Source: an uncultured bacterium (GTDB taxonomy: Bacteria; Hydrogenedentota; Hydrogenedentia; Hydrogenedentales; JAEUWI01). From it: a stretch of DNA of 14,019 nucleotides. Shown piece by piece: positions 3,127 to 14,019 of this stretch. The translations under genes were made by a program, and so were the position numbers. The DNA lies in the NCBI GenBank assembly GCA_963977445.1, contig CAXBPH010000189.1, positions 1 through 14,019 of the forward strand. The letters run 5' to 3'. The notes beneath the pieces are model-generated. The model did not search any database and was not told the DNA's origin. It saw nothing but the letters and a program-made list of their open reading frames with translations. Every line of letters begins with the position of its first letter. The first letter of the stretch is position 1.

Positions 3127-4017
3127 ATGTTAAAGAGAATTTCAGCCGCATTAGTCGTAGTCGCCGCAGTCGGTTTCAGCGCCCCATCCAGCGCAATAAC
3201 CACCAACGGCGACTGGTCAGACTGGTTTAACTACGATGGCGACGCCAGTGTCGGTAAGACTTGGGACGAGACGAAAGTTGATTTGGTAGATTCGAATATT
3301 CGATTTCTTAACGATGAAGAAGGTCCGACCCCGGGCTTCGGCGGCCAGACCTACGACATCGAACAGATCTTCTACTTCTATGAAGATAATGGTGCTGGAT
3401 TTACCGGTGGCCGTCTTCACATCGGGCTTGTAACCGGTTTCCCTGCAGCGGGCGTGCCTTCCGACAATCTCTACTCCGGCGACATGTTTGTTGACTTTGG
3501 TGGCGAGGGTAACTTTGACGTTGCCATAGCTACCAGCACAGCAACATCGATTGGTCACTTGGGTAAAGGCGACCTCGGCACCCTCACCCCGGATGCCGAT
3601 TTCTTCGGTCAGGCTTGGGCCTATGACGGCAGCAAGTCTTTGGAGCAGGACGTAATCCTCAACCAGTACGTCGCTTCCAGCCCCTATCGCCTGTCCCGTA
3701 AGGACCTTGGCAGCACCACGGACATCACGAATAGCGCGAATGTCGAAGTTGCCTGGGGCGGCATGGGTTACCACAACTTCCTCGAAATTGCCTTGGACGT
3801 CGATGGCAGTATCGAAGAATTGCTTACGGGTGCTGGTGGTCTTGGTCTCCACTGGACGATGGAATGCGGTAACGACGTGATTAACGTTTCCGACAGCACG
3901 CCTTTCGTACCTGGGTCCCCCAATCGGAATGCGCCTCCTGTTCCCGAACCATCCACCCTCGCACTCCTCGGAATGGGCCTCATCGGCGGGGCACTCCGCA
4001 AGAAGTTTACAGCCTGA
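3127..4017 (+). CDS. PEP-CTERM sorting-domain surface protein (exosortase substrate)
   Basis: AGGAG RBS and an N-terminal signal peptide (MLKRISAALVVVAAVGFSAPSSA). The C-terminus is VPEPSTLALLGMGLIGGALRKKFTA (PEP motif, TM helix, basic tail), and there is a 'LHWTMECGND' motif seen in PEP-CTERM proteins. Confidence 0.93.
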   Translation: MLKRISAALVVVAAVGFSAPSSAITTNGDWSDWFNYDGDASVGKTWDETKVDLVDSNIRFLNDEEGPTPGFGGQTYDIEQIFYFYEDNGAGFTGGRLHIGLVTGFPAAGVPSDNLYSGDMFVDFGGEGNFDVAIATSTATSIGHLGKGDLGTLTPDADFFGQAWAYDGSKSLEQDVILNQYVASSPYRLSRKDLGSTTDITNSANVEVAWGGMGYHNFLEIALDVDGSIEELLTGAGGLGLHWTMECGNDVINVSDSTPFVPGSPNRNAPPVPEPSTLALLGMGLIGGALRKKFTA

Positions 4018-4224: not shown

Positions 4225-6600
4225 ATGATTGATAGCAGTTTGTGGCCCCATAGGGCATGCAGTCGAAAGATAGCGCGAGGTATTCTGGCCCTTTCAAGCG
4301 TCGCGTGGGCCCTGGTGGCGACCTCCGAATCTTTTACCCGTAGAGAACCATCGGTACCGCCGATCCCCGCAAAGAATCTCATACCCAACAGCAGCTTCGA
4401 ACTGGGCGCGGACCACTGGTCATCGCTGGGAAAACATACGGTAAGTGGCGGTGACTTATGCGGCCTCTATGGTGTCATTCAAGCCGGTGGTGCCCAGGAG
4501 GGCGATCATTGCCTCCGCATCGAACTCGGGCCCGGAAAAACGCCCGTGACCCATTCTGATTATACCCTGGGCGCTTCGGCGACGGTTGTCCAGTCGGCCC
4601 CCAGAGCGGCCACCCTCGGCTGGATGACCGTGGAGCCGGGAAGGTCCTACACCCTTTCGGCATGGCTCCGTGCCGACCGGGACGATGTGCCTGCCGATTT
4701 GGTCTTTCGATTTGGTGGCGATGTAAACTCGGGCACCGGACCCAATACGCATATAAAGGTTCTATCGCTTACACCAACCTGGACCCGCTATGCATTCACC
4801 ATGGTTGCGGAACATCCCGATGTATACGTGGCGGTTGGCCCCAATCTACTCGCCACCACCGAGGATTCCGCCACGGTATGGCTGGACGCGGTACAGCTGG
4901 AGGCCACACCGGAATCAACGGCGGGTGACGTGCATGTCGAAGCCACGCCCTATGCGTCACGAGAGCTCGTGGAAATTGGCATCAATACGAAGCACTACGG
5001 CAACCTCTTTGACCACAAAGACCTCACGGGGTTTGAGGTAGTTGGCCTCAACGGAACGACGACGTCCACAAGCGTGGAATTGCGTGTCGAACTCGAAGAC
5101 TACTTCGGTGAGCGCGGCCCCATGTCTTCCCATCGTCTGGAGATTCCCGCCCAGTCACGAAGCTCAACCTTTCTTCCCCTGGCGATACCCGGCACGGGCT
5201 ATTACCGAGCCCACCTTTCGTGGAATGCCGCAGGCGTCTTGCACACCCGGACGATAAAATTCTCGGTGGTGGACACCTATCGCTGGGACGATTCTGCCTT
5301 CGGCCTCAATCATGTTCCGACGACCGCTGAAGCCTGCGCCCAATTGCGTAAGGGAGGGGTTGCCTGGGCGCGGGACTGGTCCATGAAATGGGACGCGGTG
5401 GAGGCCACCGAAGGCAGCTATGACTTTTCCGAAATTGACCGACAGGTGAATCGAATCAAAGCCACCGGCATGCATCCGCTACCGCTGCTTCCCCCCCAGC
5501 CTTCCGCCGCGTGGGCCTCTGAAGCCCCGCTGGGCGATCTTCCCGTCGTGGAGCGAACGGCCTATGCCCCAACGGCAGATAAGCGCGCGCAGCTCAATCA
5601 ATTCATCGCCGCCACGGTAACGCGCTATAAGGACCGCGTGGAGTACTGGGAATTCCTTAACGAGCCGCTGTGGGTACCCTGGTATTGCCTCCCCACCAGC
5701 GCGGGCTACGATGTCGATACCTATATCGACCTGTTGAAGGGTGCCTTCGCCGCAATGAAAGGTGCGGACCCGGATTGTCTGGTGCTCGGTGGCCTCTCCA
5801 TCATGGCGCGGAGCACCCTGGGAGACGAATTTATCGAGAAGGGTGGTCTGGACTATGTAGATATCTACAATCTACATCCCTACCCCGAAGGAGACGGTCC
5901 AGAAGCCTTTGTGCCCTGGATGGCCCGCATCCAGGCCACCATGGACGCCCACGGTGGTCGCAAGCCCATCTGGGCCACGGAGCTGAGCTATTGGGGCACC
6001 GACGACAAACCCTGGTCACCCTGGGCACCGCCCAATTCGGGTCACTGGTCGGCCAACCGTCAGCAAGCCTCCGAACGGGAAGCCGCCGATTACAACATAC
6101 GGCAGTCGGTGATATTGCTGGCCCATGGCGTCGAAAAAATATTCTGGCATTCCGGCCTCGAAGGCGAGGTCAATGTGGGCGTGAATGACCTGGAAAACCC
6201 ACTCCTCGACCCGGAGGCTATACCGCAAAAGTTTTTTGTGGCCCAGGCGGCCCTGGCTAATTTTCTCGGACCCAAGCCGGCATTCGTCGCTCCCCTCAAG
6301 AAAGCGGAGAAAATAGACGACCACGACACGTCCAAAATTCACGGCTACGCCTTTGATGGACCGGAAGGAGCCGTACTCATTGTCTGGTCACCCGGGGTGC
6401 TCAACAAGGGGCAATTCGGCAAGGATGGCGTGGTGCACTTGGGCGAATCACCGGTGTACCTGGTTTCATCCACACTGGACGCTGAATCACTGGCCCAGGC
6501 AGGCGCCTTGGGATACAGCAACGCGTACAACGGCTGGACAATCACGATTCCAGAGAACACGTCAGCGTACACCGTCGTGGGCTCCCCCATTCGGGAATAG
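4225..6600 (+). CDS. secreted clan GH-A glycoside hydrolase (GH39/GH5-like TIM barrel) with an N-terminal carbohydrate-binding (CBM4/9-like) domain
   Basis: Signal-like N-terminus. 'NLIPNSSFE', 'PGRSYTLSAWLR' and 'VWLDAVQLE' are CBM-type motifs. Acid/base motif WEFLNEP, 'DIYNLHPY' and nucleophile motif KPIWATE. The exact GH family is not determinable by eye. Confidence 0.82.
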   Translation: MIDSSLWPHRACSRKIARGILALSSVAWALVATSESFTRREPSVPPIPAKNLIPNSSFELGADHWSSLGKHTVSGGDLCGLYGVIQAGGAQEGDHCLRIELGPGKTPVTHSDYTLGASATVVQSAPRAATLGWMTVEPGRSYTLSAWLRADRDDVPADLVFRFGGDVNSGTGPNTHIKVLSLTPTWTRYAFTMVAEHPDVYVAVGPNLLATTEDSATVWLDAVQLEATPESTAGDVHVEATPYASRELVEIGINTKHYGNLFDHKDLTGFEVVGLNGTTTSTSVELRVELEDYFGERGPMSSHRLEIPAQSRSSTFLPLAIPGTGYYRAHLSWNAAGVLHTRTIKFSVVDTYRWDDSAFGLNHVPTTAEACAQLRKGGVAWARDWSMKWDAVEATEGSYDFSEIDRQVNRIKATGMHPLPLLPPQPSAAWASEAPLGDLPVVERTAYAPTADKRAQLNQFIAATVTRYKDRVEYWEFLNEPLWVPWYCLPTSAGYDVDTYIDLLKGAFAAMKGADPDCLVLGGLSIMARSTLGDEFIEKGGLDYVDIYNLHPYPEGDGPEAFVPWMARIQATMDAHGGRKPIWATELSYWGTDDKPWSPWAPPNSGHWSANRQQASEREAADYNIRQSVILLAHGVEKIFWHSGLEGEVNVGVNDLENPLLDPEAIPQKFFVAQAALANFLGPKPAFVAPLKKAEKIDDHDTSKIHGYAFDGPEGAVLIVWSPGVLNKGQFGKDGVVHLGESPVYLVSSTLDAESLAQAGALGYSNAYNGWTITIPENTSAYTVVGSPIRE

Positions 6601-6792: not shown

Positions 6793-6827
6793 AAAAAAGG
6801 GTTATCGCGAATTTTCGCGATAACCCT
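6793..6827 (-). terminator. intrinsic terminator downstream of the tRNA-Lys 3' end
   Basis: Perfect 13-bp inverted repeat AGGGTTATCGCGA (6798-6810) / TCGCGATAACCCT (6815-6827) with a 4-nt loop. The A-run at 6793-6798 gives a U-tail on the - strand, and the stem starts 10 nt after the CCA. Confidence 0.85.
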
Positions 6828-6837
6828 GTATTTATAA

Positions 6838-6886
6838 TGGTGAACGGGCTGGGGCTCGAACCCAGGACCACCGGATTAAAAGTCCG
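6838..6886 (-). tRNA. 3' half of tRNA-Lys(UUU): att-site fragment, not a complete gene
   Basis: The - strand reads CGGA-CTTTTAA-TCCG GTGGTC CTGGG-TTCGAGC-CCCAG CCCGTTC A CCA, i.e. anticodon arm (TTT at 6880-6878), T-arm, acceptor 3' strand and CCA. No D-arm or complementary acceptor 5' strand is present beyond 6887. Confidence 0.88.
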
Positions 6887-6976
6887 TGGGAAGACTGGTA
6901 TCCTATTGTCACCCGAACGCCATAACCGCTGTAAATAAAGGCCCAAAACAATCACAATGTCTCCCCTTGTTGCCTG

Positions 6977-6985
6977 TGATATACT
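6977..6985 (+). promoter_or_regulatory. extended -10 promoter candidate for the integrase
   Basis: TG-A-TATACT at 6977-6985, about 40 nt upstream of the int ATG. GGGGAG RBS at 7013-7018. Confidence 0.5.
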
Positions 6986-6990
6986 TACGT

Positions 6991-7010
6991 TGGACTTAAT
7001 ATGGACTTAA
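6991..7010 (+). repeat. tandem TGGACTTAA direct repeat, putative integrase arm-type binding sites
   Basis: TGGACTTAA at 6991-6999 and 7002-7010 (11-bp period), between the att core and the int start. Confidence 0.6.
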
Positions 7011-7026
7011 ATGGGGAGATTCGACC

Positions 7027-8277
7027 ATGAAAAAAGCGATTACAGACCGGGTATTGAAATCATTAAAGCCGTTAGCGACCGCCTATGAGGTGAGAGACCA
7101 AGACCTGGGCGGCTATTTGGCACGCGTCCAGCCATCCGGGCTCATTGTTTTCTATTGTGAATATCGAAACGAGGCGGGGAAGCGCAATCGCATCAAGCTG
7201 GGCAGGTATCCGGCACTATCGGCCCCACGGGCGCGCGAAGCGGCGCGGGCGCTACTTGCGGGCGTATCCTTGGGCGCGGACCCAGCGGCAGAACGGCGAC
7301 AAGCCCGTGACACCGTTGCAAGCCTCACCCTTCGAGAATACATAGACGGCCCCTATAGGGCGTGGGCCGAGTCCAATCTAAAAAGCCACAAGCAAACACT
7401 ATCCCGCCTATTCTACGGCTTCGAGACGCTACTAGATCGGAATCTCGACAGCCTGACAGCGTTCGACTTCGAGAAAAACCGGCAGGCCCGTTTGAAGTCC
7501 AAGCCCAAGAGCAAGGGCAAGCGGTCATCACCCACGGGCGCTACCATTAACCGGGACGCGGCGCACCTGCGCGCGGCGTTCACCCGTGCCATGAAGTGGG
7601 GGTATATGGCGGTGAATCCCCTCACAGGTATTACCAAGTCCGTGGAAGATCGCAACGCGAAAATACGCGCCCTTACCGATGATGAAGAGGTGAGCATTCT
7701 GGCCGAATTTCAGGCCCGGCGGGATGCCAAAATCGCGCTACTACGGCGGCAGGAGCTGAAGAGAAAGCGGCAACTGCCGAAGGTGCCCCGATATGTGACG
7801 TTTTTGGAACCTGCATTTATCGTGTCGGTTGACTGCGGCGTACGGCGCGGTGAATTACTCGGCTTGCTATGGAAAGACGTGGACTTTGACGGGCGCGCAA
7901 TCACCGTGCAGGGCGCGGGCTCGAAGTCTTCACAGTCACGCATGATCCCCCTGTCTACCCGAGCGCATATGACCCTCGCCAAATGGAAGACGCTGACACG
8001 CGGGCAAGGGCGCGTATTCCCCAAGGCCACGGCAGACGGCCTTAAGGCGCAATGGAAGACCCTGCTTAGGGACACCAAAATAAAGGCCTTGCGCTGGCAT
8101 GATTTGCGTCATACCTTCGGCTCACGGCTTGCACAGGCGGGCGTACCTGTCACGACGATACAGCGGCTCATGGGCCATTCATCGATTGTGACCACGCAGA
8201 GATACTTACACGTGTCCGCCGAAGATGCCCGGCGCGGGATAGAAATGCTGGAAAAAGCAGCAGGGGATAGAGCATGA
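7027..8277 (+). CDS. int: tyrosine recombinase / phage integrase with an N-terminal arm-DNA-binding domain
   Basis: N-terminal 'YEVRDQDLGGYLARVQPSG...RIKLGRYPALS...AREAAR' arm-binding domain. Catalytic motifs GVRRGELLGL (R), GSKS (K), WHDLRHTF (HxxR) and LMGHSSIVTTQRY (H, Y). Confidence 0.96.
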   Translation: MKKAITDRVLKSLKPLATAYEVRDQDLGGYLARVQPSGLIVFYCEYRNEAGKRNRIKLGRYPALSAPRAREAARALLAGVSLGADPAAERRQARDTVASLTLREYIDGPYRAWAESNLKSHKQTLSRLFYGFETLLDRNLDSLTAFDFEKNRQARLKSKPKSKGKRSSPTGATINRDAAHLRAAFTRAMKWGYMAVNPLTGITKSVEDRNAKIRALTDDEEVSILAEFQARRDAKIALLRRQELKRKRQLPKVPRYVTFLEPAFIVSVDCGVRRGELLGLLWKDVDFDGRAITVQGAGSKSSQSRMIPLSTRAHMTLAKWKTLTRGQGRVFPKATADGLKAQWKTLLRDTKIKALRWHDLRHTFGSRLAQAGVPVTTIQRLMGHSSIVTTQRYLHVSAEDARRGIEMLEKAAGDRA

Positions 8278-8305
8278 AGCGCAAAGCAAAATAGAATCAA
8301 GTCTT

Positions 8306-8358
8306 GCCGGGGCTAGGGTAGCTCCCGAAAGCCTGTTTCCGTACAGGTTGCCCCCGGC
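8306..8358 (+). ncRNA. structured three-stem RNA/DNA element after int (resembles the int-alpA-type motif)
   Basis: GCCGGGG (8306-8312) / CCCCGGC (8352-8358) closes two hairpins, GGG-TAGCT-CCC (8316-8326) and CCTGT-TTCCGT-ACAGG (8332-8347), joined by GAAAG. The family name is from memory and unverified. Confidence 0.55.
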
Positions 8359-8375
8359 TTCATTTAACGGAGTTT

Positions 8376-8900
8376 ATGAACGGAGATAAACAGATGGATA
8401 ACTGGTCACATCAACAGCGGCGATGGTTTAAAGATTTTATCAAACACGACTGTATGAACTTCGCGATTCGCGACATGGTCAACGGAACAGACAGTCTAAA
8501 TCTTCCCGAGGGTTGGGAAGAACGCGAATTGTTGACGCACGCTCTAAACCTCAATTGGGCGTTGACAGACGCAGGATATGAGTACACGAAAGAGCACAAT
8601 GTCAGGGCGACGGGTGCCACAGTTGTGGCTCTGGGGATTGCAGAGAAAGTCCCCGCTTGCGACATACAGAAAAAGATACTTCGATTTATGAATAACGAGG
8701 GATTTGACACCGACGTTAATACGATAGCCAAGGGCGATATCTGTAACAAACTTTCGATTGACGATGAGGTGGGCAAGAATGCGATCAGGGCACTCCGCGA
8801 CTTAGATCTAGTCAAACCACACGGCAACCACCCCCGACTAAAGTACTATCTTTCAGTAGAGGGCCGCAGAGTGGCCTCCTACATTAAATTGGAATCCTAA
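8376..8900 (+). CDS. hypothetical protein with a probable C-terminal winged-helix DNA-binding domain
   Basis: 174-aa ORF with GGAG RBS (alternative ATG at 8394, also with GGAG). The C-terminus 'IQKKILRFM...KGDICNKLSIDDEVGKNAIRALRDLDLVK...YYLSVEGRRVA' fits a wHTH pattern. Confidence 0.65.
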   Translation: MNGDKQMDNWSHQQRRWFKDFIKHDCMNFAIRDMVNGTDSLNLPEGWEERELLTHALNLNWALTDAGYEYTKEHNVRATGATVVALGIAEKVPACDIQKKILRFMNNEGFDTDVNTIAKGDICNKLSIDDEVGKNAIRALRDLDLVKPHGNHPRLKYYLSVEGRRVASYIKLES

Positions 8901-9004
8901 TCGAATTCCAATTACCCCCCATTAGCCCCTGATAAACGGCCCTAAAACCCGTAAACTTCCAATAGTGATGGCTGGAATTAGCCAGCTATAACGGGAGTTT
9001 TTTT

Positions 9005-9229
9005 ATGAATATCTTATGTGAAGATCGCGGATTAACTGAAATCGAGGCGGGGGAATTTCTTGGGCTCCACCCTGCGACACTGCGGAAAATGCGCTGTATC
9101 GGGAATCGCCCCGGCTTATTGCCCTGCCCGCCATACTACAAATTCGGCAAGGCGATCCGGTATAGCCTCTTTGAATTGCAGGACTATCGGGCAGCACACC
9201 GCGTGACTGACGGGGGCGAAGCTGCATGA
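9005..9229 (+). CDS. AlpA/excisionase-type helix-turn-helix protein
   Basis: 'LTEIEAGEFLGLHPATLRKMR...PPYYKFGKAIRYSLFELQDY' is a typical HTH_17/AlpA pattern. GGGAG RBS, and ATGA overlap with the next gene. Confidence 0.88.
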   Translation: MNILCEDRGLTEIEAGEFLGLHPATLRKMRCIGNRPGLLPCPPYYKFGKAIRYSLFELQDYRAAHRVTDGGEAA

Positions 9230-11004
9230 CCTGCCCCAACGAAGCGACCCCCGACGCGGTAGGACGCGGCGAGGGCCGAGCAAAACATTTACTCCAAAAA
9301 AATGATAGCACGCGTGACCTTATTAAGCAAATCGGAAATATCGCCGATTTGATTATATCGGCAGCGGCGCAGCGGCCCGGCCCTGAGACGAACGCTATCC
9401 TTGCCCGCGTCAACACCGACGCATGGTTCTGGACGGAACCCGAGCAGCTGGCTTGCTCCACGGTGGAGCTTGTAGGGCGGAATCCAGGAACAGAAGCGGC
9501 ACTGCCTGAAATTCTCCAAAAATACGGGCACGATGGCGACCCGTTGCGGCTCGAAGAATACGTGTCTGACTTCAACCGACTGTCGGCAGAGCATCGGCGC
9601 GAAAGCGACCTGTTCGAGAGTTCTCCCGAAGACTTCGCGGCGCTGCGCTGCACCGACGTTGCCAACGGCGCGCGGTTCGAAGAGCAGTTCACAGGCGTGG
9701 CGCTCCATTCGGCATCGCTCGGCCCCATGGTCTACGATTCCACCCGATGGGCACCTGACCCCAAGGCTATGCGGGAATTGGCGAAGAAGATTCCTGATTG
9801 TATTCGGGCAGAAATCAAAGCCATCGTGCTCAAGATGGATACGACCGATGGCGACAGCCTGAAGCGGCTCGAAGAACATTCGAAGGCGCTGCGGAAATGG
9901 GCTAAAACTTCTGCATCTTCGAAGGGAATCGACAATACCACCCGTGAGGCCAGTTCGACACCGGGTATAAACGCCGACCACATCGAATTCGACAGCAACC
10001 CGGCGCTATTGAATTGCCCGAATGCGCGCATTGACCTCAGGACCGGCCAGACTGGCCCGCACAGGCCATACGACTACGCGACGCAGGTCTGCCCCACAGA
10101 ATACGACCCAGACGCCACCTGCCCCCGATGGGACCAATTCCTGAAAGAAATATTTCAAGGCGATACCGAGCTAATCGAATATGTGCGGCGCGCCCTTGGC
10201 TATTCGCTGAGCGGCGATACGAGCTGGCAATGCTGGTTTCTGTTGCACGGCTGCGGCGAGAATGGCAAATCCCGTTTCGTGGCAGTCTTGCGCAACATAT
10301 TGGGCGCGGACTATTGCTCCGAAATCGACCCCGAGGAATTGTGTGCGCAGCCATGGGCCCGACACAGCACCGAGCGGGCGGCGCTCCGTGGTGTGCGTTA
10401 CCTGACATCCGAGGAAACCAAGTCAGAGCGGGAAATCAACGAGACCTTTATCAAATCCTTGACCGGCGAAGGGCGATTGCGCGCGCGGTTCATGCGACAG
10501 GATTCGTTCGAATTTTCCCCGGTCCTGAAGCTGTGGCTATCGACGAACAACAGGCCTGTTGTCAAAGACAATTCACACGGATTTTGGCGGCGGGTGCGGT
10601 TGATACCGTTTGAAGCAAATTTCAGCAACTCACCCAATCGTGATCCGTTTCTTGACCAGAAACTGAAGGCAGAGGCCCCTGGCATCCTCGCCCAGCTGGT
10701 GAAGTATGCGGGAATCGCCTTTCGGGAAGGTGAAGGTGTCCCCCCGGCCCGCATGGTCGAAGCGCAATCGGAATACCGGGCAGATAACGACGAAATTGGC
10801 GAATGGCTGAAAGAGCACACAACCGACGCTTTCAAGAGCAACACAGTCGGAAAGCGCTTTCTATATGACAACTACGCACTGAGCGCACCCGGAGAAAAAG
10901 AGGCTTTTAATGCATTTAATCGGAAACTCAAGGCGCGCGGGATAGCTGATAAGCGTGAAAAGATGGGGTATGTATGGGTCGGCTTAACCCTGAAATCGGC
11001 TTAG
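9226..11004 (+). CDS. P4-family phage/plasmid primase-type protein (D5_N plus SF3 helicase)
   Basis: D5_N motifs 'TDVANGARF', 'YDSTRW', 'LLNCPNARIDLRTG' and 'YDPDATCPRWDQFL'. Walker A GCGENGKS, 'IKSLTGEG', motif C 'STNNRP' and 'GFWRRVRLIPF'. Confidence 0.93.
   Translation: MTCPNEATPDAVGRGEGRAKHLLQKNDSTRDLIKQIGNIADLIISAAAQRPGPETNAILARVNTDAWFWTEPEQLACSTVELVGRNPGTEAALPEILQKYGHDGDPLRLEEYVSDFNRLSAEHRRESDLFESSPEDFAALRCTDVANGARFEEQFTGVALHSASLGPMVYDSTRWAPDPKAMRELAKKIPDCIRAEIKAIVLKMDTTDGDSLKRLEEHSKALRKWAKTSASSKGIDNTTREASSTPGINADHIEFDSNPALLNCPNARIDLRTGQTGPHRPYDYATQVCPTEYDPDATCPRWDQFLKEIFQGDTELIEYVRRALGYSLSGDTSWQCWFLLHGCGENGKSRFVAVLRNILGADYCSEIDPEELCAQPWARHSTERAALRGVRYLTSEETKSEREINETFIKSLTGEGRLRARFMRQDSFEFSPVLKLWLSTNNRPVVKDNSHGFWRRVRLIPFEANFSNSPNRDPFLDQKLKAEAPGILAQLVKYAGIAFREGEGVPPARMVEAQSEYRADNDEIGEWLKEHTTDAFKSNTVGKRFLYDNYALSAPGEKEAFNAFNRKLKARGIADKREKMGYVWVGLTLKSA
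9302..9330 (-). promoter_or_regulatory. antisense sigma70-type promoter inside the 5' end of the primase/helicase gene
   Basis: On the - strand: TTGCTT (9330-9325), 17-bp spacer, TATCAT (9307-9302), with an extended-10 TG at 9310-9309. Confidence 0.6.
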
Positions 11005-11005
11005 C

Positions 11006-11096
11006 GGTGTACCTTGGTGTACCTATTAAAGCATCACTCCGCGAGAAATTCATTTTCCTTAAGGGAGATACTATTTTTGGTACACCGTAGTACACC
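11006..11096. repeat. putative replication origin: two inverted pairs of GGTGTAC(C) iterons flanking an AT-rich core
   Basis: GGTGTACCT at 11006-11014 and 11016-11024. Reverse-complement copies GGTACACC (11079-11086) and GTACACC (11090-11096). Both pairs have a 10-bp period, and the site lies immediately after the helicase stop. Confidence 0.75.
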
Positions 11097-11132
11097 AATC
11101 ACGAAATTACCACATTGGAAAGGCTCCAAATC

Positions 11133-11513
11133 ATGAAATTCTGGCAAGTTCTCCACCGATTTCCAACCTTAACCGCAGCAGGATTCACAGACCCGGCAGA
11201 CCCCAACTTTGCCAAGTGGCGTGCCGAGCTGACGACCCGGCCCGATGACATCGAAGCCGCTCAGCAGTGGGTGTCACAGTTCCCGAAATCCACGACGGCA
11301 CGGCTATCCAGCTATCACGCAAAACACATCCTCGAATACGACACCGGGCGCTACGTCGACGAAGGCTCATTTATCGTGGGCGCGATTCTGGCGGGCTTCA
11401 CGCCGGGCACCTCGGCACACGGCCCGGTCGGCTTCCTGAACGTCGACAGGCGCGCACTGAATCGATACATCAAATCGAAACCGGCGCTGGCCCTGCTGGG
11501 GCTTGCGGCCTAA
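11133..11513 (+). CDS. hypothetical mobile-element protein with an S-Y-x-x-K-H...Y-V-x-x-G-x-F-I motif
   Basis: ATG at 11133 after GAAAGG (ORF-track start is TTG at 11115). It contains 'SSYHAKHILE...RYVDEGSFIVGAILAGF'. Confidence 0.7.
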   Translation: MKFWQVLHRFPTLTAAGFTDPADPNFAKWRAELTTRPDDIEAAQQWVSQFPKSTTARLSSYHAKHILEYDTGRYVDEGSFIVGAILAGFTPGTSAHGPVGFLNVDRRALNRYIKSKPALALLGLAA

Positions 11514-11539
11514 CCATCACCAACCAAAGAGGAAAAACC

Positions 11540-12154
11540 ATGAGCGTAAAAAAACACCAAGCCCAACTATCCCGAGCAACCGCCGAACTGGTGGACCTGC
11601 AAACCCGCAGGACCGCAGCACAGCAGGCATGGACGGCGGCTATCGTTGCCGATGACCCGAAGGCCGAGGCGAAGACGGCCAAGGCGCTGGCGGACATCGA
11701 CGCAGCCCTTAGCCTGGCCGAGTCCAAGATCGCCGTCGTGCGGCGCTGCCTGCACGATGCCGAGGTCGCAGCAATTCCAGACCGTGCGGCCAAGGCGCTA
11801 TCTGAGTACACAAAGCTGGCAGGCGAGGCTACGGAATTGGCCCGTGGCGTCATGGAGCACTGGCAGGAAGGGTACGACAAGGCGCAGCGCATCCGTGAGC
11901 TTGACGGCCAATGTGGGGCCATTGCTGGCGAATTCCACGAACATACCCGCGAATTGGGCGACCCTACCACGCTGACCGGCGCACGATTCCCCGTGGCGCT
12001 GGCCGAGCTCGGGAGACTCTACGGAAATTTCGAGAAATTCGGGCCGAAGTGGCAGCCATCCATCGATACGTTGCTGCCGACCAGGCGGGCGCGGCCCGTC
12101 GAACCTGTCGAACCTGAAACCGTGACCGAACCCGCAGAGGACACCGCAGCATGA
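11540..12154 (+). CDS. alpha-helical / coiled-coil hypothetical protein (~204 aa)
   Basis: ATG at 11540 after AGAGGA (MSVKKHQAQL...). Ala/Leu/Glu/Lys-rich heptad-like sequence with a Pro/Glu-rich tail. ATGA overlap with the next gene. Confidence 0.75.
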   Translation: MSVKKHQAQLSRATAELVDLQTRRTAAQQAWTAAIVADDPKAEAKTAKALADIDAALSLAESKIAVVRRCLHDAEVAAIPDRAAKALSEYTKLAGEATELARGVMEHWQEGYDKAQRIRELDGQCGAIAGEFHEHTRELGDPTTLTGARFPVALAELGRLYGNFEKFGPKWQPSIDTLLPTRRARPVEPVEPETVTEPAEDTAA

Positions 12155-12459
12155 CCATGAACGACTTCATTCGAGGCAACCCGGCGGCGGCTGAGCAGAC
12201 TCCATGCGACCCGGGAGAAGCAGAATTCTTTGAGCGTGCCCGCGCATTTGGCTGCACGAATCCGAGGGCGATGCGAACACTTGCCACGGCTTCGGAGGGC
12301 TGGACATTCGAAAGCCTTCGCGCGGAATGCCCCGAGTTTTTTACTGAATTCCCGAACGCCAATGCGGGCCAAGGCGCTGGCCAGAAGTTCGGGACTGACC
12401 AAATCGATATGAACGCCCTGTTGCGCAAAGCAGCAGCTGAGCAACGTTGTTTTTTCTAA
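12151..12459 (+). CDS. hypothetical protein with a phage scaffolding-protein-like C-terminus
   Basis: Coupled start (ATGA) with GAGG upstream. 'LRAECPEFF...NANAGQGAG...DMNALLRKAA' resembles scaffold C-termini (recognised by eye). Confidence 0.6.
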   Translation: MTMNDFIRGNPAAAEQTPCDPGEAEFFERARAFGCTNPRAMRTLATASEGWTFESLRAECPEFFTEFPNANAGQGAGQKFGTDQIDMNALLRKAAAEQRCFF

Positions 12460-12483
12460 ACCAACCACAAGGAATCTATCATC

Positions 12484-12744
12484 ATGAAAAGAAACACCCG
12501 CGAACGAATCGCAGTAATGCCACCCATGGACGATGGCAGAAACTCACGTTTCCACAGCATGAGCGGCGAAAGCCTCATGCGCCTTCACCTCGGCATGAGC
12601 AATGCCGAGATTCAGCGCGTCAACGAGATTGCGGCACAGACTGCCCGCGATTCGATTGTCGTGCTTTGCGAAATAAAGCAGTTTGCCAACGTAACGCAGA
12701 TCCCCGGCTGGCAGTGGGTGCCCGTTGCCGGTAGTCGCGATTGA
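12484..12744 (+). CDS. hypothetical protein (86 aa)
   Basis: AAGGA RBS upstream; fills the gap between co-oriented neighbours. No recognisable motif. Confidence 0.6.
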   Translation: MKRNTRERIAVMPPMDDGRNSRFHSMSGESLMRLHLGMSNAEIQRVNEIAAQTARDSIVVLCEIKQFANVTQIPGWQWVPVAGSRD

Positions 12745-12760
12745 CTCTGGAGTTTGAACA

Positions 12761-13243
12761 TTGGCAACCGTAAAACGCAGTAAATCGCAGCGTGAAGCCG
12801 ACCTGCCCGAGATTGCCCGCGACTGGATTCAGGGGCACACGTTGCGGGAAATCGCGGCCCGCCTGAATGCCCGGCGCGACTACTCGCTATCGTTCCAGAC
12901 CATCGCCAACGACACGAAGTGCATTCTGACCCGTTGGCGCGAATCTGCAACGACTTCGATTGGCGAGCACAAGGCCATTGAGCTGGCTCGATTGAATGAG
13001 CTGGAGCGCGAAGCATGGGCGGCATGGCGCGGCTCGAAACAACCCGCAGTTCGGGCATTGGCCGAAGACAGCTCGGGCCCGGAAGGCGGGCGGATTCGAA
13101 ATCAGACTGTGACCGAAACCAAGCGAGACCCGAGGTTCCTGGCGATTATCCGGGACACAATCGCGGCCCGCGTCAAATTGCTTGGCTTGGATGGCGACTT
13201 CGCCGAACGGCTCGAAAAATTAGAAGGGAAAATCGCATCATGA
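12761..13243 (+). CDS. putative terminase small-subunit-like HTH protein
   Basis: TTG start with GGAG RBS. N-terminal HTH 'GHTLREIAARLN...SFQTIAND', central helix 'ELARLNELEREAWAAW' and 'DPRFLAII...RVKLLGLD', a pattern I associate with phage TerS-like proteins. Confidence 0.62.
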   Translation: MATVKRSKSQREADLPEIARDWIQGHTLREIAARLNARRDYSLSFQTIANDTKCILTRWRESATTSIGEHKAIELARLNELEREAWAAWRGSKQPAVRALAEDSSGPEGGRIRNQTVTETKRDPRFLAIIRDTIAARVKLLGLDGDFAERLEKLEGKIAS

Positions 13244-13419
13244 AAAATCTATTTGAGCGACTACGCAGGCTCGAAAAACGAATGGTGCCCGTCGGACCGG
13301 CGGCAGTATTCGTCATGGCACCGCCACCCGGCATCGTGGGCAAGAACGTGGACCTCACCCAGTTTTCACCGGCCAGCAATGGGCGGCCCGGCTGTCTGGT
13401 GGAATTCCGCAGACCATGA
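13240..13419 (+). CDS. small hypothetical protein (59 aa)
   Basis: ATG at 13240 overlaps the upstream stop (ATGA), with AAGGGA upstream. Sequence begins MKNLFERLRRLEKRM. Confidence 0.6.
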   Translation: MKNLFERLRRLEKRMVPVGPAAVFVMAPPPGIVGKNVDLTQFSPASNGRPGCLVEFRRP

Positions 13420-13434
13420 CGCTATCCTGTCGGC

Positions 13435-13713
13435 ATGGCAAAGCACGAAGAACTTGAACCGCTCATGACCTGTTCAGCCGTTGCCAAGGCGGCAGGCGTT
13501 GGGCGTGAGACGATCCGCCGGATGGCCGATGCTGGGAAAATCCCGTACAGCAGGCCAACCGGCGGCCATCGTCGCTACCTACTGTCACAGGTTCATGCGG
13601 CGCTAACCAAGCCCGTGACCGATGCCGAAGAGCGTTGTTATCGGATGGCACGTGAGGCAAGAAAAATAGAAGCAGAAATGGCAGCAGCAGAACGCAGAAA
13701 ACGCAAGTCTTGA
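13435..13713 (+). CDS. excisionase/MerR-like (BldC-type) HTH DNA-binding protein
   Basis: 'LMTCSAVAKAAGVGRETIRRMADAGKIPYSRPTGGHRRYLLSQV' includes the T-x-G-G-H-R-R-type motif. Confidence 0.85.
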   Translation: MAKHEELEPLMTCSAVAKAAGVGRETIRRMADAGKIPYSRPTGGHRRYLLSQVHAALTKPVTDAEERCYRMAREARKIEAEMAAAERRKRKS

Positions 13714-13738
13714 CAAGTCACCCGCTCCGGCGTATTCT
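13710..13738 (+). promoter_or_regulatory. near-consensus sigma70 promoter
   Basis: TTGACA (13710-13715), 17-bp spacer, TATTCT (13733-13738). Confidence 0.8.
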
Positions 13739-13744
13739 ACTAGC

Positions 13745-13915
13745 GGTCAACCGGACCATTTTTAAACTAAGCGGCCCCCGAAGGTGCGACAACACCAACG
13801 AGGGCCTAAGACTCGAATGCAGATGAGTGCAAACGAATCGTCACCGTAGTATACCCCCAAGTGGGGGGTATATTCACCCGCACCCGCCTGCATTCTCAAT
13901 CAGGAGAATGCACCC
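13745..13915 (+). promoter_or_regulatory. long structured 5' leader with alternative RBS-sequestering folds
   Basis: Hairpins at 13773-13806, 13850-13872 (TATACCCCC/GGGGGTATA) and 13889-13912 (TGCATTCTC/GAGAATGCA, covering AGGAG). A competing helix forms between 13815-13830 and 13880-13895. Confidence 0.65.
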
Positions 13916-14019
13916 ATGAATATCAGCACCACCCTCGAATGCCAAGACCTCGAAGATCTCTTTATCCAGCATCTTGCGGAGCAAAGCCACCACTTCGGCG
14001 ATATAGACGAATACGTCCG
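13916..14019 (+). CDS. 5' end of an unknown gene (MNISTTLECQDLEDLFIQHLAEQSHHFGDIDEYV...), truncated by the window edge
   Basis: ATG at 13916, 9 nt after AGGAG (13902-13906); the frame is open to the end of the window. Confidence 0.6.
   Translation, partial: MNISTTLECQDLEDLFIQHLAEQSHHFGDIDEYV

Follow-up and report, generated by a model that had tools for sequence, protein, structure and literature searches.

A tRNA-Lys island of an uncultured Hydrogenedentota bacterium with an orphan small terminase homologue and the anatomy of a minimal phage satellite

Knowledge of phage satellites comes largely from Proteobacteria and Firmicutes, with marine viromes as a more recent source. In phage-inducible islands of the SaPI type (PICIs), a small terminase subunit (TerS) encoded by the satellite redirects the TerL of the helper phage. 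To our knowledge, no phage has been isolated for the uncultured phylum Hydrogenedentota. In this study, a satellite-like island was analysed in an uncultured bacterium of that phylum (NCBI GenBank assembly GCA_963977445.1). The DNA analysed, referred to here as the window, is 14,019 nt long and is the whole of contig CAXBPH010000189.1 (C189), one of the 464 contigs of a 7.1-Mb assembly that is 94% complete.

Described groups of elements were used for comparison. PICMI elements (6.1 kb) carry int, a variable gene, alpA and prim and are packaged as concatemers; the gene in their variable 'iolg/icg' slot is needed for excision, and no terS, sid or ppi homologue is reported for PICMI115 (PMC10803314). 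VEIMEs occur in virions with monomers of <5 to 16.8 kb; some have TerS, AlpA and a primase/helicase, none has capsid genes, and satellite TerS genes are listed among the interference genes (PMC9618062). For P4-like satellites, the core set is given as int, psu, delta, sid, alpA, epsilon and alpha (PMC10085698).

The island described here is about 7.5 kb long, and window positions 6824-14019 hold its left ~95%. All of its genes are on the + strand. It has an integration module, a replication module with a cognate origin and an orphan TerS homologue, lacks virion genes, is bounded by clean repeats and is under purifying selection. With moderate confidence, we read it as a minimal phage satellite residing in tRNA-Lys(UUU) and spreading by means of a helper phage; the helper would trigger excision and replication, and TerS would direct packaging of the island by the helper TerL into helper capsids. 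A sequence-only reading of the window had proposed a PICI/P4-like satellite. That proposal holds for the anatomy of the island, and the findings it had named as contrary to it did not appear; the lifestyle is a deduction from the anatomy. Related islands occur on contigs C24, C56 and C89 of the same assembly and in other genomes of the phylum (G015, G098).

The left boundary is a 63-bp exact direct repeat (attL, 6824..6886, −), made up of 14 bp downstream of the tRNA and the last 49 nt of tRNA-Lys(UUU). The latter (6838-6886, −) is a displaced 3′ fragment of the tRNA with the CCA end included, as had been claimed from the sequence. ARAGORN detected no whole tRNA in the window, and the Rfam tRNA model gave a partial match at 6849-6905 (−) of 24.9 bits, under the threshold of 29 bits. 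The tRNA-Lys segment of attL occurs once more in the assembly, on contig C370, 132 bp from the end of that contig. There, the second copy of the 63-bp repeat spans positions 119-181 of the reverse-complemented contig and lies inside an intact tRNA-Lys(ttt) at C370:5377-5452. Both the second att core and the intact tRNA-Lys, which the sequence-only reading had proposed to look for to the right, were thereby found.

The terminal 132 bp of C370 past the repeat share homology with the right terminus of the complete paralogous island on C24, and the window end aligns to a C24 position 222 bp ahead of the point where homology to the start of reverse-complemented C370 sets in. By this homology, C370 appears to carry the right junction of the island, with about 222 bp missing in between. 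Because no overlap of at least 15 bp was found between the window end and any contig end of the assembly, the join is based on homology and not on assembly. With only ~222 bp missing, there would be no room for head, tail or conjugation genes.

The native tRNA-Lys terminator hairpin lies at 6798-6827. Terminator hairpins adjoining the core were observed at 5453-5494 in C370 (locus L006), 8895-8942 in locus L003 (C24) and 6798-6837 in the window; because each island has its own hairpin beside the core, the rebuilt tRNA keeps a terminator. The hairpin of the tRNA-Lys island is a diverged copy of the native one. The island on C24, which is integrated in tRNA-His, has the same Lys-type terminator sequence, and its ancestor may therefore have integrated at tRNA-Lys; this suggests descent from a tRNA-Lys-integrating ancestor in which integrase and target had changed. 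The sequences left and right of the tRNA-Lys site are not syntenic in same-genus genomes (~71% nucleotide identity), and G003 keeps tRNA-Lys beside the C370-side flank only; since the left flank is not syntenic in the relatives, they allowed no empty-site comparison. Proteins identical to the window TerS and to the 204-aa late protein (P0001, P0006) occur in a public protein collection on a second contig of 65,707 bp, which probably holds the whole island and both flanks.

The integration module starts with int (7027..8277, +), encoding a P4-type tyrosine integrase of 416 aa with an arm-binding N-terminal domain (Phage_integrase 8.4e-27; Arm-DNA-bind_3 1.5e-15; phrog_1 8.1e-58), in agreement with the earlier call. 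Just upstream of int, GGACTTAA is present twice in tandem with 11-bp spacing (6992..7010, +), a candidate arm-type integrase site or int operator. GGACTTAA was seen exclusively as tandem pairs, of which one precedes int in the window, one precedes int in C24 and one is in the right terminal part of the C24 island; GTGTGCTTA occurs twice with the same 11-bp spacing at the right end of the tRNA-Lys island on C370. These 8-9-mers are absent elsewhere in the stretches searched and flank the core in the circular form, and both tandems may be arm-type sites. The int-alpA RNA motif (Rfam RF02996) was matched at 8306..8370 (+), starting 29 nt past the int stop. The match covers model positions 1-71 of 71 and scores 37.6 bits, above the gathering threshold of 35.8 (E 4.3e-05 in a search of 7.3 kb); four other loci that were scanned gave no match to this motif. 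The usual hosts of this RNA are mainly Proteobacteria; it reportedly came from a comparative screen of 2017.

Between int and alpA lies a slot of variable content, occupied in the window by a gene for a 174-aa protein (8376..8900, +), a candidate regulator or excision co-factor with no family at E ≤ 0.01 in the libraries searched. The sequence-only reading had called this a winged helix-turn-helix (HTH) gene; the call was not confirmed, its one trace being a weak match to the winged-helix family HrcA_DNA-bdg (E 0.22). Unrelated proteins fill the same slot in C24 (225 aa, 2 nt after int) and C56 (259 aa, overlapping int), and in G015 a 144-aa protein with a 4-nt overlap with int is likewise unrelated to that of the window. 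Near the other end of the island, a 92-aa Xis-like HTH protein of the excisionase family is encoded at 13435..13713 (+), with TIGR01764 at 35.7 bits over its cut-off of 28.8 (HTH_17 1.4e-08; MerR 6.6e-08), so that the earlier claim of a second Xis-like gene, preceded by a small open reading frame (ORF), is upheld. This gene is missing from the C24 paralogue, and its sole match in the defence library was to an HTH component (mad1).

The replication module opens with an AlpA-like small HTH protein of 74 aa (9005..9229, +; HTH_17 7.6e-4), which matched phrog_66, labelled 'excisionase and transcriptional regulator', at 0.0031. Its stop overlaps the start of the replicase gene, and the position directly before the replicase fits an AlpA-type regulator. 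The replicase (9226..11004, +; 592 aa) is a P4-family superfamily 3 (SF3) helicase, as had been recognised earlier, with D5_N at 4.3e-31, DUF5906 at 1.1e-09 and TIGR01613, the C-terminal domain of 'phage/plasmid primase, P4 family', at 245.6 bits against a cut-off of 108.7. Its PHROG matches cover residues ~94-591 and correspond to the C-terminal parts only of primase-helicase profiles. An N-terminal primase-polymerase part is present in the related proteins of C24, C56 and C89, and the one in G015 matched Prim-Pol at 1.1e-31. The similarity between the window and C24 replicases is confined to residues 1-28 (68% identity), and the two are otherwise non-homologous; after these residues, within window 9226-9650, ~110 unmatched residues replace the primase-polymerase domain. 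This stretch could be either the scar of a recombination event or a novel N-terminal domain.

A candidate replication origin (11006..11096, no strand assigned) follows the replicase. It is arranged as GGTGTACC-TT-GGTGTACC, an AT-rich spacer and two inverted copies, with three of the four exact copies of GGTGTACC and a fourth copy at 7 of 8 positions. The window has 4 occurrences against 0.17 expected, a number reached in none of 200 shuffles, which sustains the iteron origin proposed from the sequence. The C56 island has the same design after its own replicase with a different 9-mer, and that of C24 has an inverted repeat at this place. Each of the three elements having its own repeat set right after its own replicase fits replicase-specific origins.

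The next gene (11133..11513, +) encodes a 126-aa protein with a weak phrog_9576 match and an AlphaFold2 (AF2) model of pLDDT 81, to which only weak winged-helix matches were obtained (Z ≤ 4.3). It follows replicase and origin in three islands, being 90% identical in C24 and 51% in C56, and on a phage-like contig a relative with 33% identity is encoded amid genes for DNA polymerase, exonuclease, helicase and primase. Judging from position, phage-module relative and modelled fold, the protein is probably a winged-helix replication accessory, and for the same reasons it was counted with replication and not with the late genes. Its family was found in 1 of 135 phylum genomes (the own one). A metagenome scan with it gave three loci, two of which are not independent because they are 100% identical to contigs of the own genome.

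The protein that ties the island to phage packaging is encoded at 12761..13243 (+). It is 160 aa long and has, in alignment, an N-terminal HTH-like segment and a conserved E-R-E-A-W-A-A-W helix. All five relatives on IMG/VR viral contigs lie immediately upstream of a Terminase_6N TerL gene (split in L008), and in viral contig L010 TerS-TerL is followed by endolysin, portal (1.9e-97) and head-tail adaptor genes. Among species genomes, relatives were found at 26 loci, mostly of Planctomycetota, 15 of which had TerL within ~0.7 kb downstream as detected by tblastn with four TerL queries. By the gene context of its relatives, the 160-aa protein is a TerS homologue; the earlier TerS-like call has thereby gained backing from phage loci. 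A metagenome scan with satellite-type TerS gave no match. In several of the viral and Planctomycetota loci (L007, L009, L013-L015, L020 and L021), a short tyrosine recombinase of ~230 aa comes directly after TerS-TerL, and a primase-polymerase and a ParB-methyltransferase fusion precede the pair, which is unusual for a phage packaging module.

Scans of 12 window ORFs against Pfam and PHROG showed no capsid, portal, TerL or tail family, in line with the absence of such genes that the sequence-only reading had described. The virion cluster that might have lain further right did not materialise, as the C24 paralogue ends after one more gene, and no conjugation genes were found among the ORFs of the window or the C24 copies. 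In the own assembly (94% complete), searches for Terminase_6N, TerL_ATPase, Phage_capsid and Phage_portal gave no match, and no protein related to the phage TerL was found; the TerL, capsid and portal family searches recovered their targets in control genomes. With no TerL in island or assembly, the TerS is an orphan. The PEP-CTERM-bearing nature of the host, also suggested earlier, was borne out by 21 matches across the assembly, including one at window 3937-4005 (36.5 bits). In the left flank, the protein encoded at 3127-4017 has a PEP-CTERM end, and 4225-6600 encodes a secreted-looking protein of 791 aa.

A second copy of the 160-aa protein (74% identical) is encoded in the same genome on the 41-kb contig C24. 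The island there is complete, with 51-bp direct repeats at C24:9827-9877 and 17441-17491, the latter inside tRNA-His, 7,614 bp apart. Its genes are, in order, int, a 225-aa ORF, an alpA-like gene, a 768-aa primase-helicase, homologues of the 126-, 204-, 86-, 160- and 59-aa genes, and a last gene of 96 aa; it ends one gene past the point that matches the window end. Window 11118-14019 is colinear with it at 81-85% DNA identity save for the 102-aa and 92-aa genes, which are insertions in the window. None of 8 same-genus genomes contains the interior of the C24 island, and all 8 retain tRNA-His with its right flank.

Divergence between the two copies is uneven. The int and alpA products are ~52-54% identical (alpA 54%) with synonymous divergence (dS) saturated at >2.9, and the late module is 74-93% identical with dS of 0.19-0.72. 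The ratio of nonsynonymous to synonymous divergence (dN/dS) against C24 was 0.11 for int, 0.15 for alpA, 0.22 for the 126-aa, 0.41 for the 204-aa and 0.50 for the 86-aa gene, 0.29 for TerS and 0.23 for the 59-aa gene; a 34-codon piece of the last gene gave 0.85, on few changes only. Values of 0.11-0.50 in 7 of 8 genes compared indicate that the ORFs are real genes. The saturated dS of the front half, the low dS of the late genes and the differing replicases indicate that the islands are mosaics: to judge from these divergences, the back half was shared recently, and the front halves and tRNA targets that go with it differ. Such modularity is typical of satellites.

Besides the tRNA-Lys island, the own genome has at least three small islands with int and/or a primase-helicase, at C24:9827-17491, C56:24375-~30400 (L004) and C89:250-~3900 (L005). 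The C56 island lies at a tRNA-Pro(GGG) gene that has the same orientation as int; its far end was not found, there being no tRNA-Pro direct repeat of at least 11 bp before the contig end; the C89 island is cut by the contig start. The late or replication-accessory genes of these three islands were not found in 8 same-genus genomes. The family of the 204-aa protein was present in 4 of 135 phylum genomes (the own one, G015, G098 and G087), with members in int-primase islands; two of the matches, in G015 and G098, could be placed in bounded islands. The G015 island is 6.7 kb long, has 47-bp tRNA-Ala repeats and carries int, the int-overlapping gene, a Prim-Pol helicase, a 204-aa family gene and, adjoining it, a gene of the 86-aa family (38% related). 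A 147-aa ORF of this island was considered as a second kind of TerS and rejected: hhalign comparison with the TerS alignment gave a probability of 0.2, and neither Pfam nor PHROG yielded a match. The G098 island (L074; G098:C69, 4597-16661) is 12 kb long and has 50-bp tRNA-Arg repeats, int, an HTH gene, a large ORF in the replicase position and a 204-aa family gene; its scanned ORFs showed no capsid, portal or terminase match.

For a satellite of this anatomy, infection by a helper would switch on the alpA-replicase operon; the helper is possibly virulent, since none is resident in the assembly. Int and HTH factors would excise the island at the repeat and the helicase would fire the origin, with priming supplied by host or helper because the replicase is without a primase domain. 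The island TerS would bind a pac site on island DNA and recruit the helper TerL, leading to headful packaging of island DNA into helper capsids. As the island is only 7.5 kb, concatemers of several units are probable, and their packaging would resemble that shown for PICMI115 and VEIMEs (PMC10803314, PMC9618062). The remaining late genes, for the 204-, 86- and 59-aa proteins and the Cys-rich last gene, would constitute a conserved, lineage-specific helper interface.

Several observations weigh against a satellite. No helper phage was found in the own assembly. The replicase showed no primase (Prim-Pol) domain, and its first ~140 residues match nothing in the Pfam and PHROG scans. The alpA-like call of the sequence-only reading keeps its phrog_66 match and its position, but the HTH_17 score, 20.1 bits, is under the Pfam cut-off of 27. 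The sole PHROG match of the 160-aa protein is phrog_645, labelled 'RNase E' (2.6e-10); no TerS match was found for it in Pfam or among PDB sequences, a PDB search with the alignment gave nothing below E 0.049, and 11 of the 26 genome relatives had no TerL detectable by the four queries. Its close relatives occur in 1 of 101 related genomes (the own one), and only two non-self proteins related to it were found among 5.8 billion. It is also ~30-40 C-terminal residues shorter than the phage relatives, and might therefore hinder a terminase instead of cooperating with it. The missing C-terminal tail, as well as the lack of a helper and of TerL in the assembly, would suit an integrative, self-replicating island that is not packaged (cryptic plasmid-like or anti-phage), with the TerS-like protein as a terminase decoy or DNA-binding regulator; several such islands do coexist in one genome, and the placing of satellite TerS with interference genes in PMC9618062 agrees with this. 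However, no defence family was matched except for the lone HTH match to mad1, and interference and packaging are not exclusive in known satellites. The late module is moreover conserved between two islands with different int, att and replicase, a pattern better explained by a common outside partner than by a passive island. We consider a non-packaged island the main rival, though an unlikely one.

The phage origin of the TerS relatives could also mean that the island is a decayed prophage which has kept its integration, replication and terS genes only. The 12-kb G098 island, with a neck/tail-completion gene (4.8e-10) and a tape-measure gene (1.7e-33), could be either a prophage in decay or a satellite that has some tail genes, and these tail-type genes count against the satellite reading in that part of the wider group may be decayed prophages. 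For the tRNA-Lys island itself such decay is very unlikely, as there are two copies with intact repeats, intact ORFs and dN/dS below about 0.5 in 7 of 8 genes, the same compact gene order of 7.5-7.6 kb recurs at different tRNAs, and ORF scans revealed no debris of head or tail pseudogenes. A small tRNA-integrated island with int and a replicase overlaps in layout with integrative mobilisable elements as well, which are moved by a conjugative system elsewhere in the cell. We give this explanation hardly any weight, since library scans of the window and C24 ORFs showed no relaxase, coupling-protein or type IV secretion system family and the TerS homologue points to phage packaging. The satellite reading is thus retained as the preferred one.

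The other late genes had been noted earlier as part of a group of four after the origin (11133-11513, 11540-12154, 12151-12459 and 12484-12744) without recognisable family, and this holds except for the weak phrog_9576 match of the first. The post-origin genes were also said to be unlike P4 sid, psu or delta and cf-PICI capsid genes; no match to these was obtained in the libraries scanned, and the late genes other than TerS matched no described satellite protein. The 204-aa protein (11540..12154, +) belongs to a small uncharacterised family and is modelled with three helices (residues 3-36, 40-77 and 79-139; AF2 pLDDT 71). A word-based homologue search found only itself and the C24 copy; an exhaustive HMMER profile search gave 10 relatives of 190-221 aa among 1.84 billion representatives (E 1.6e-11 to 7.8e-4), one of them labelled Candidatus Hydrogenedentes bacterium by its source. 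Identity with P4 Psu, put forward by an Atlas language-model cluster (score 0.91), was not borne out: Pfam Psu gave no match at E up to 10, no PDB sequence matched below E 0.45, Foldseek found nothing at E ≤ 0.001, and the VIA search returned generic helical hairpins (Z ≤ 11.6, a range common for helical models). No member was found in viral-contig scans for the 204-aa and 86-aa proteins.

Next to it, a 102-aa accessory ORF (12151..12459, +) is missing from the C24 paralogue and has no family in the libraries scanned. It is followed by the conserved late gene for the 86-aa protein (12484..12744, +), 76% identical in C24. The small 59-aa ORF (13240..13419, +), which overlaps the TerS stop and has no family, is the best-conserved late gene, with 93% identity in C24; BLASTP gave no alignment between it and a 68-aa ORF of G098. 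The last gene (13916..14019, +) is cut by the contig end, leaving the 5′ part (34 codons) of a Cys-rich protein of ~96 aa, 88% identical to the start of the 96-aa protein in C24; a stop at 13847 rules out a longer N-terminus.

A promoter and leader precede the last gene (13710..13915, +). The sigma-70-like promoter, TTGACA-17-TATTCT, is the sole promoter-like site found in the scan, and its hexamers and the leader are conserved in C24. The structured leader of ~175 nt is conserved above the level of the neighbouring genes and occurs three times in the genome, at 13710-13915 in the window, at 8272-8484 in L003 (C24) and at ~2750-2960 in L067 (C301), there before an unrelated ORF. A consensus fold (n = 3 sequences) contains 47 pairs, of which 6 show compensatory change; the final hairpin buries the ribosome-binding site, and an upstream GAATGCA could compete for that hairpin. 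No Rfam match was obtained for the leader, which is a candidate riboregulator.

These islands may be the first recognisable satellites of Hydrogenedentota and a new lineage of interchangeable halves, whose back half would be a new way of taking over helper packaging or capsid assembly; we put this forward tentatively and with more doubt than conviction, the literature on satellites of the phylum not having been surveyed. In such a lineage, the front half (integrase and att, variable gene, AlpA, replicase and origin) may be swapped freely, and the back half may comprise the 204-aa family, the 86- and 59-aa proteins, the short TerS and the Cys-rich protein behind a riboregulated promoter. In any case, the logic of satellites (int, AlpA, replicase and orphan TerS) appears in an uncultured phylum, and the int-alpA RNA is seen outside its usual hosts. 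The two sister copies, with a common late module and different integrase, tRNA and replicase, form a natural experiment on helper-facing genes. The phage relatives of TerS point to the kind of helper to seek, and the 204-aa protein, a small new family, marks related islands. If packaging were shown, minimal concatemer-packaged satellites would extend well beyond Vibrionaceae and ocean viromes.

The likenesses to known satellites were drawn from published descriptions, and the island is known here from its genes alone. It resembles the PICMIs in its very small size (~7.5 against 6.1 kb), in the order int, variable gene, alpA and DUF5906-type primase/helicase, and in the lack of capsid-remodelling genes; the unrelated proteins in its int-alpA slot follow the pattern of the 'iolg/icg' slot (PMC10803314). 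The PICMI combination of colocalised int, alpA and prim (DUF3987 or DUF5906) is present, with the alpA-like match under cut-off. However, PICMIs are described as integrating next to fis, downstream of it, in Vibrionaceae, whereas this island is in tRNA-Lys(UUU) of an uncultured non-proteobacterial phylum and carries, besides its TerS homologue, another five or six late genes. With VEIMEs, it shares the size range, tyrosine integrase, AlpA, primase/helicase, excisionases, absence of a major capsid gene and a TerS closest to phage TerS; VEIMEs, however, are defined as concatemers found in (marine) virions, and the island was compared with them by description.

With SaPI-type PICIs, the island has in common int, a regulator/excision HTH, a replicase with adjacent origin, TerS without TerL, unidirectional genes and the absence of tail and holin genes, but it is about half the usual size, its TerS is C-terminally short, its late genes belong to no described PICI family, and no capsid-morphogenesis, ppi or Stl-type repressor homologue was detectable in it. 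In the sense of SatelliteFinder, with the forbidden list from PMC10085698, the island shows these features of a PICI: an integrase at one end, a replicase with adjacent origin, TerS without TerL, and no tail, holin, portal or connector genes among the 12 window ORFs or the additional ORFs of the C24 copy. Like P4-like satellites, it has tRNA integration, an arm-binding P4-type integrase, an AlpA-like gene and a TIGR01613 helicase; unlike them, as judged by the core set, it showed no psu, delta, sid or epsilon homologue in sequence searches, no primase part was found in its helicase, TerS is present and the gene order is different. It also differs from the cfPICIs, whose own capsid, portal, connector, adaptor and TerL genes were not found in the island. 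From its gene content, the element is best described as a minimal, satellite-like island that carries TerS together with a late module of a kind not described before; in size and core order it is close to PICMIs and VEIMEs, and in its TerS to the SaPIs.

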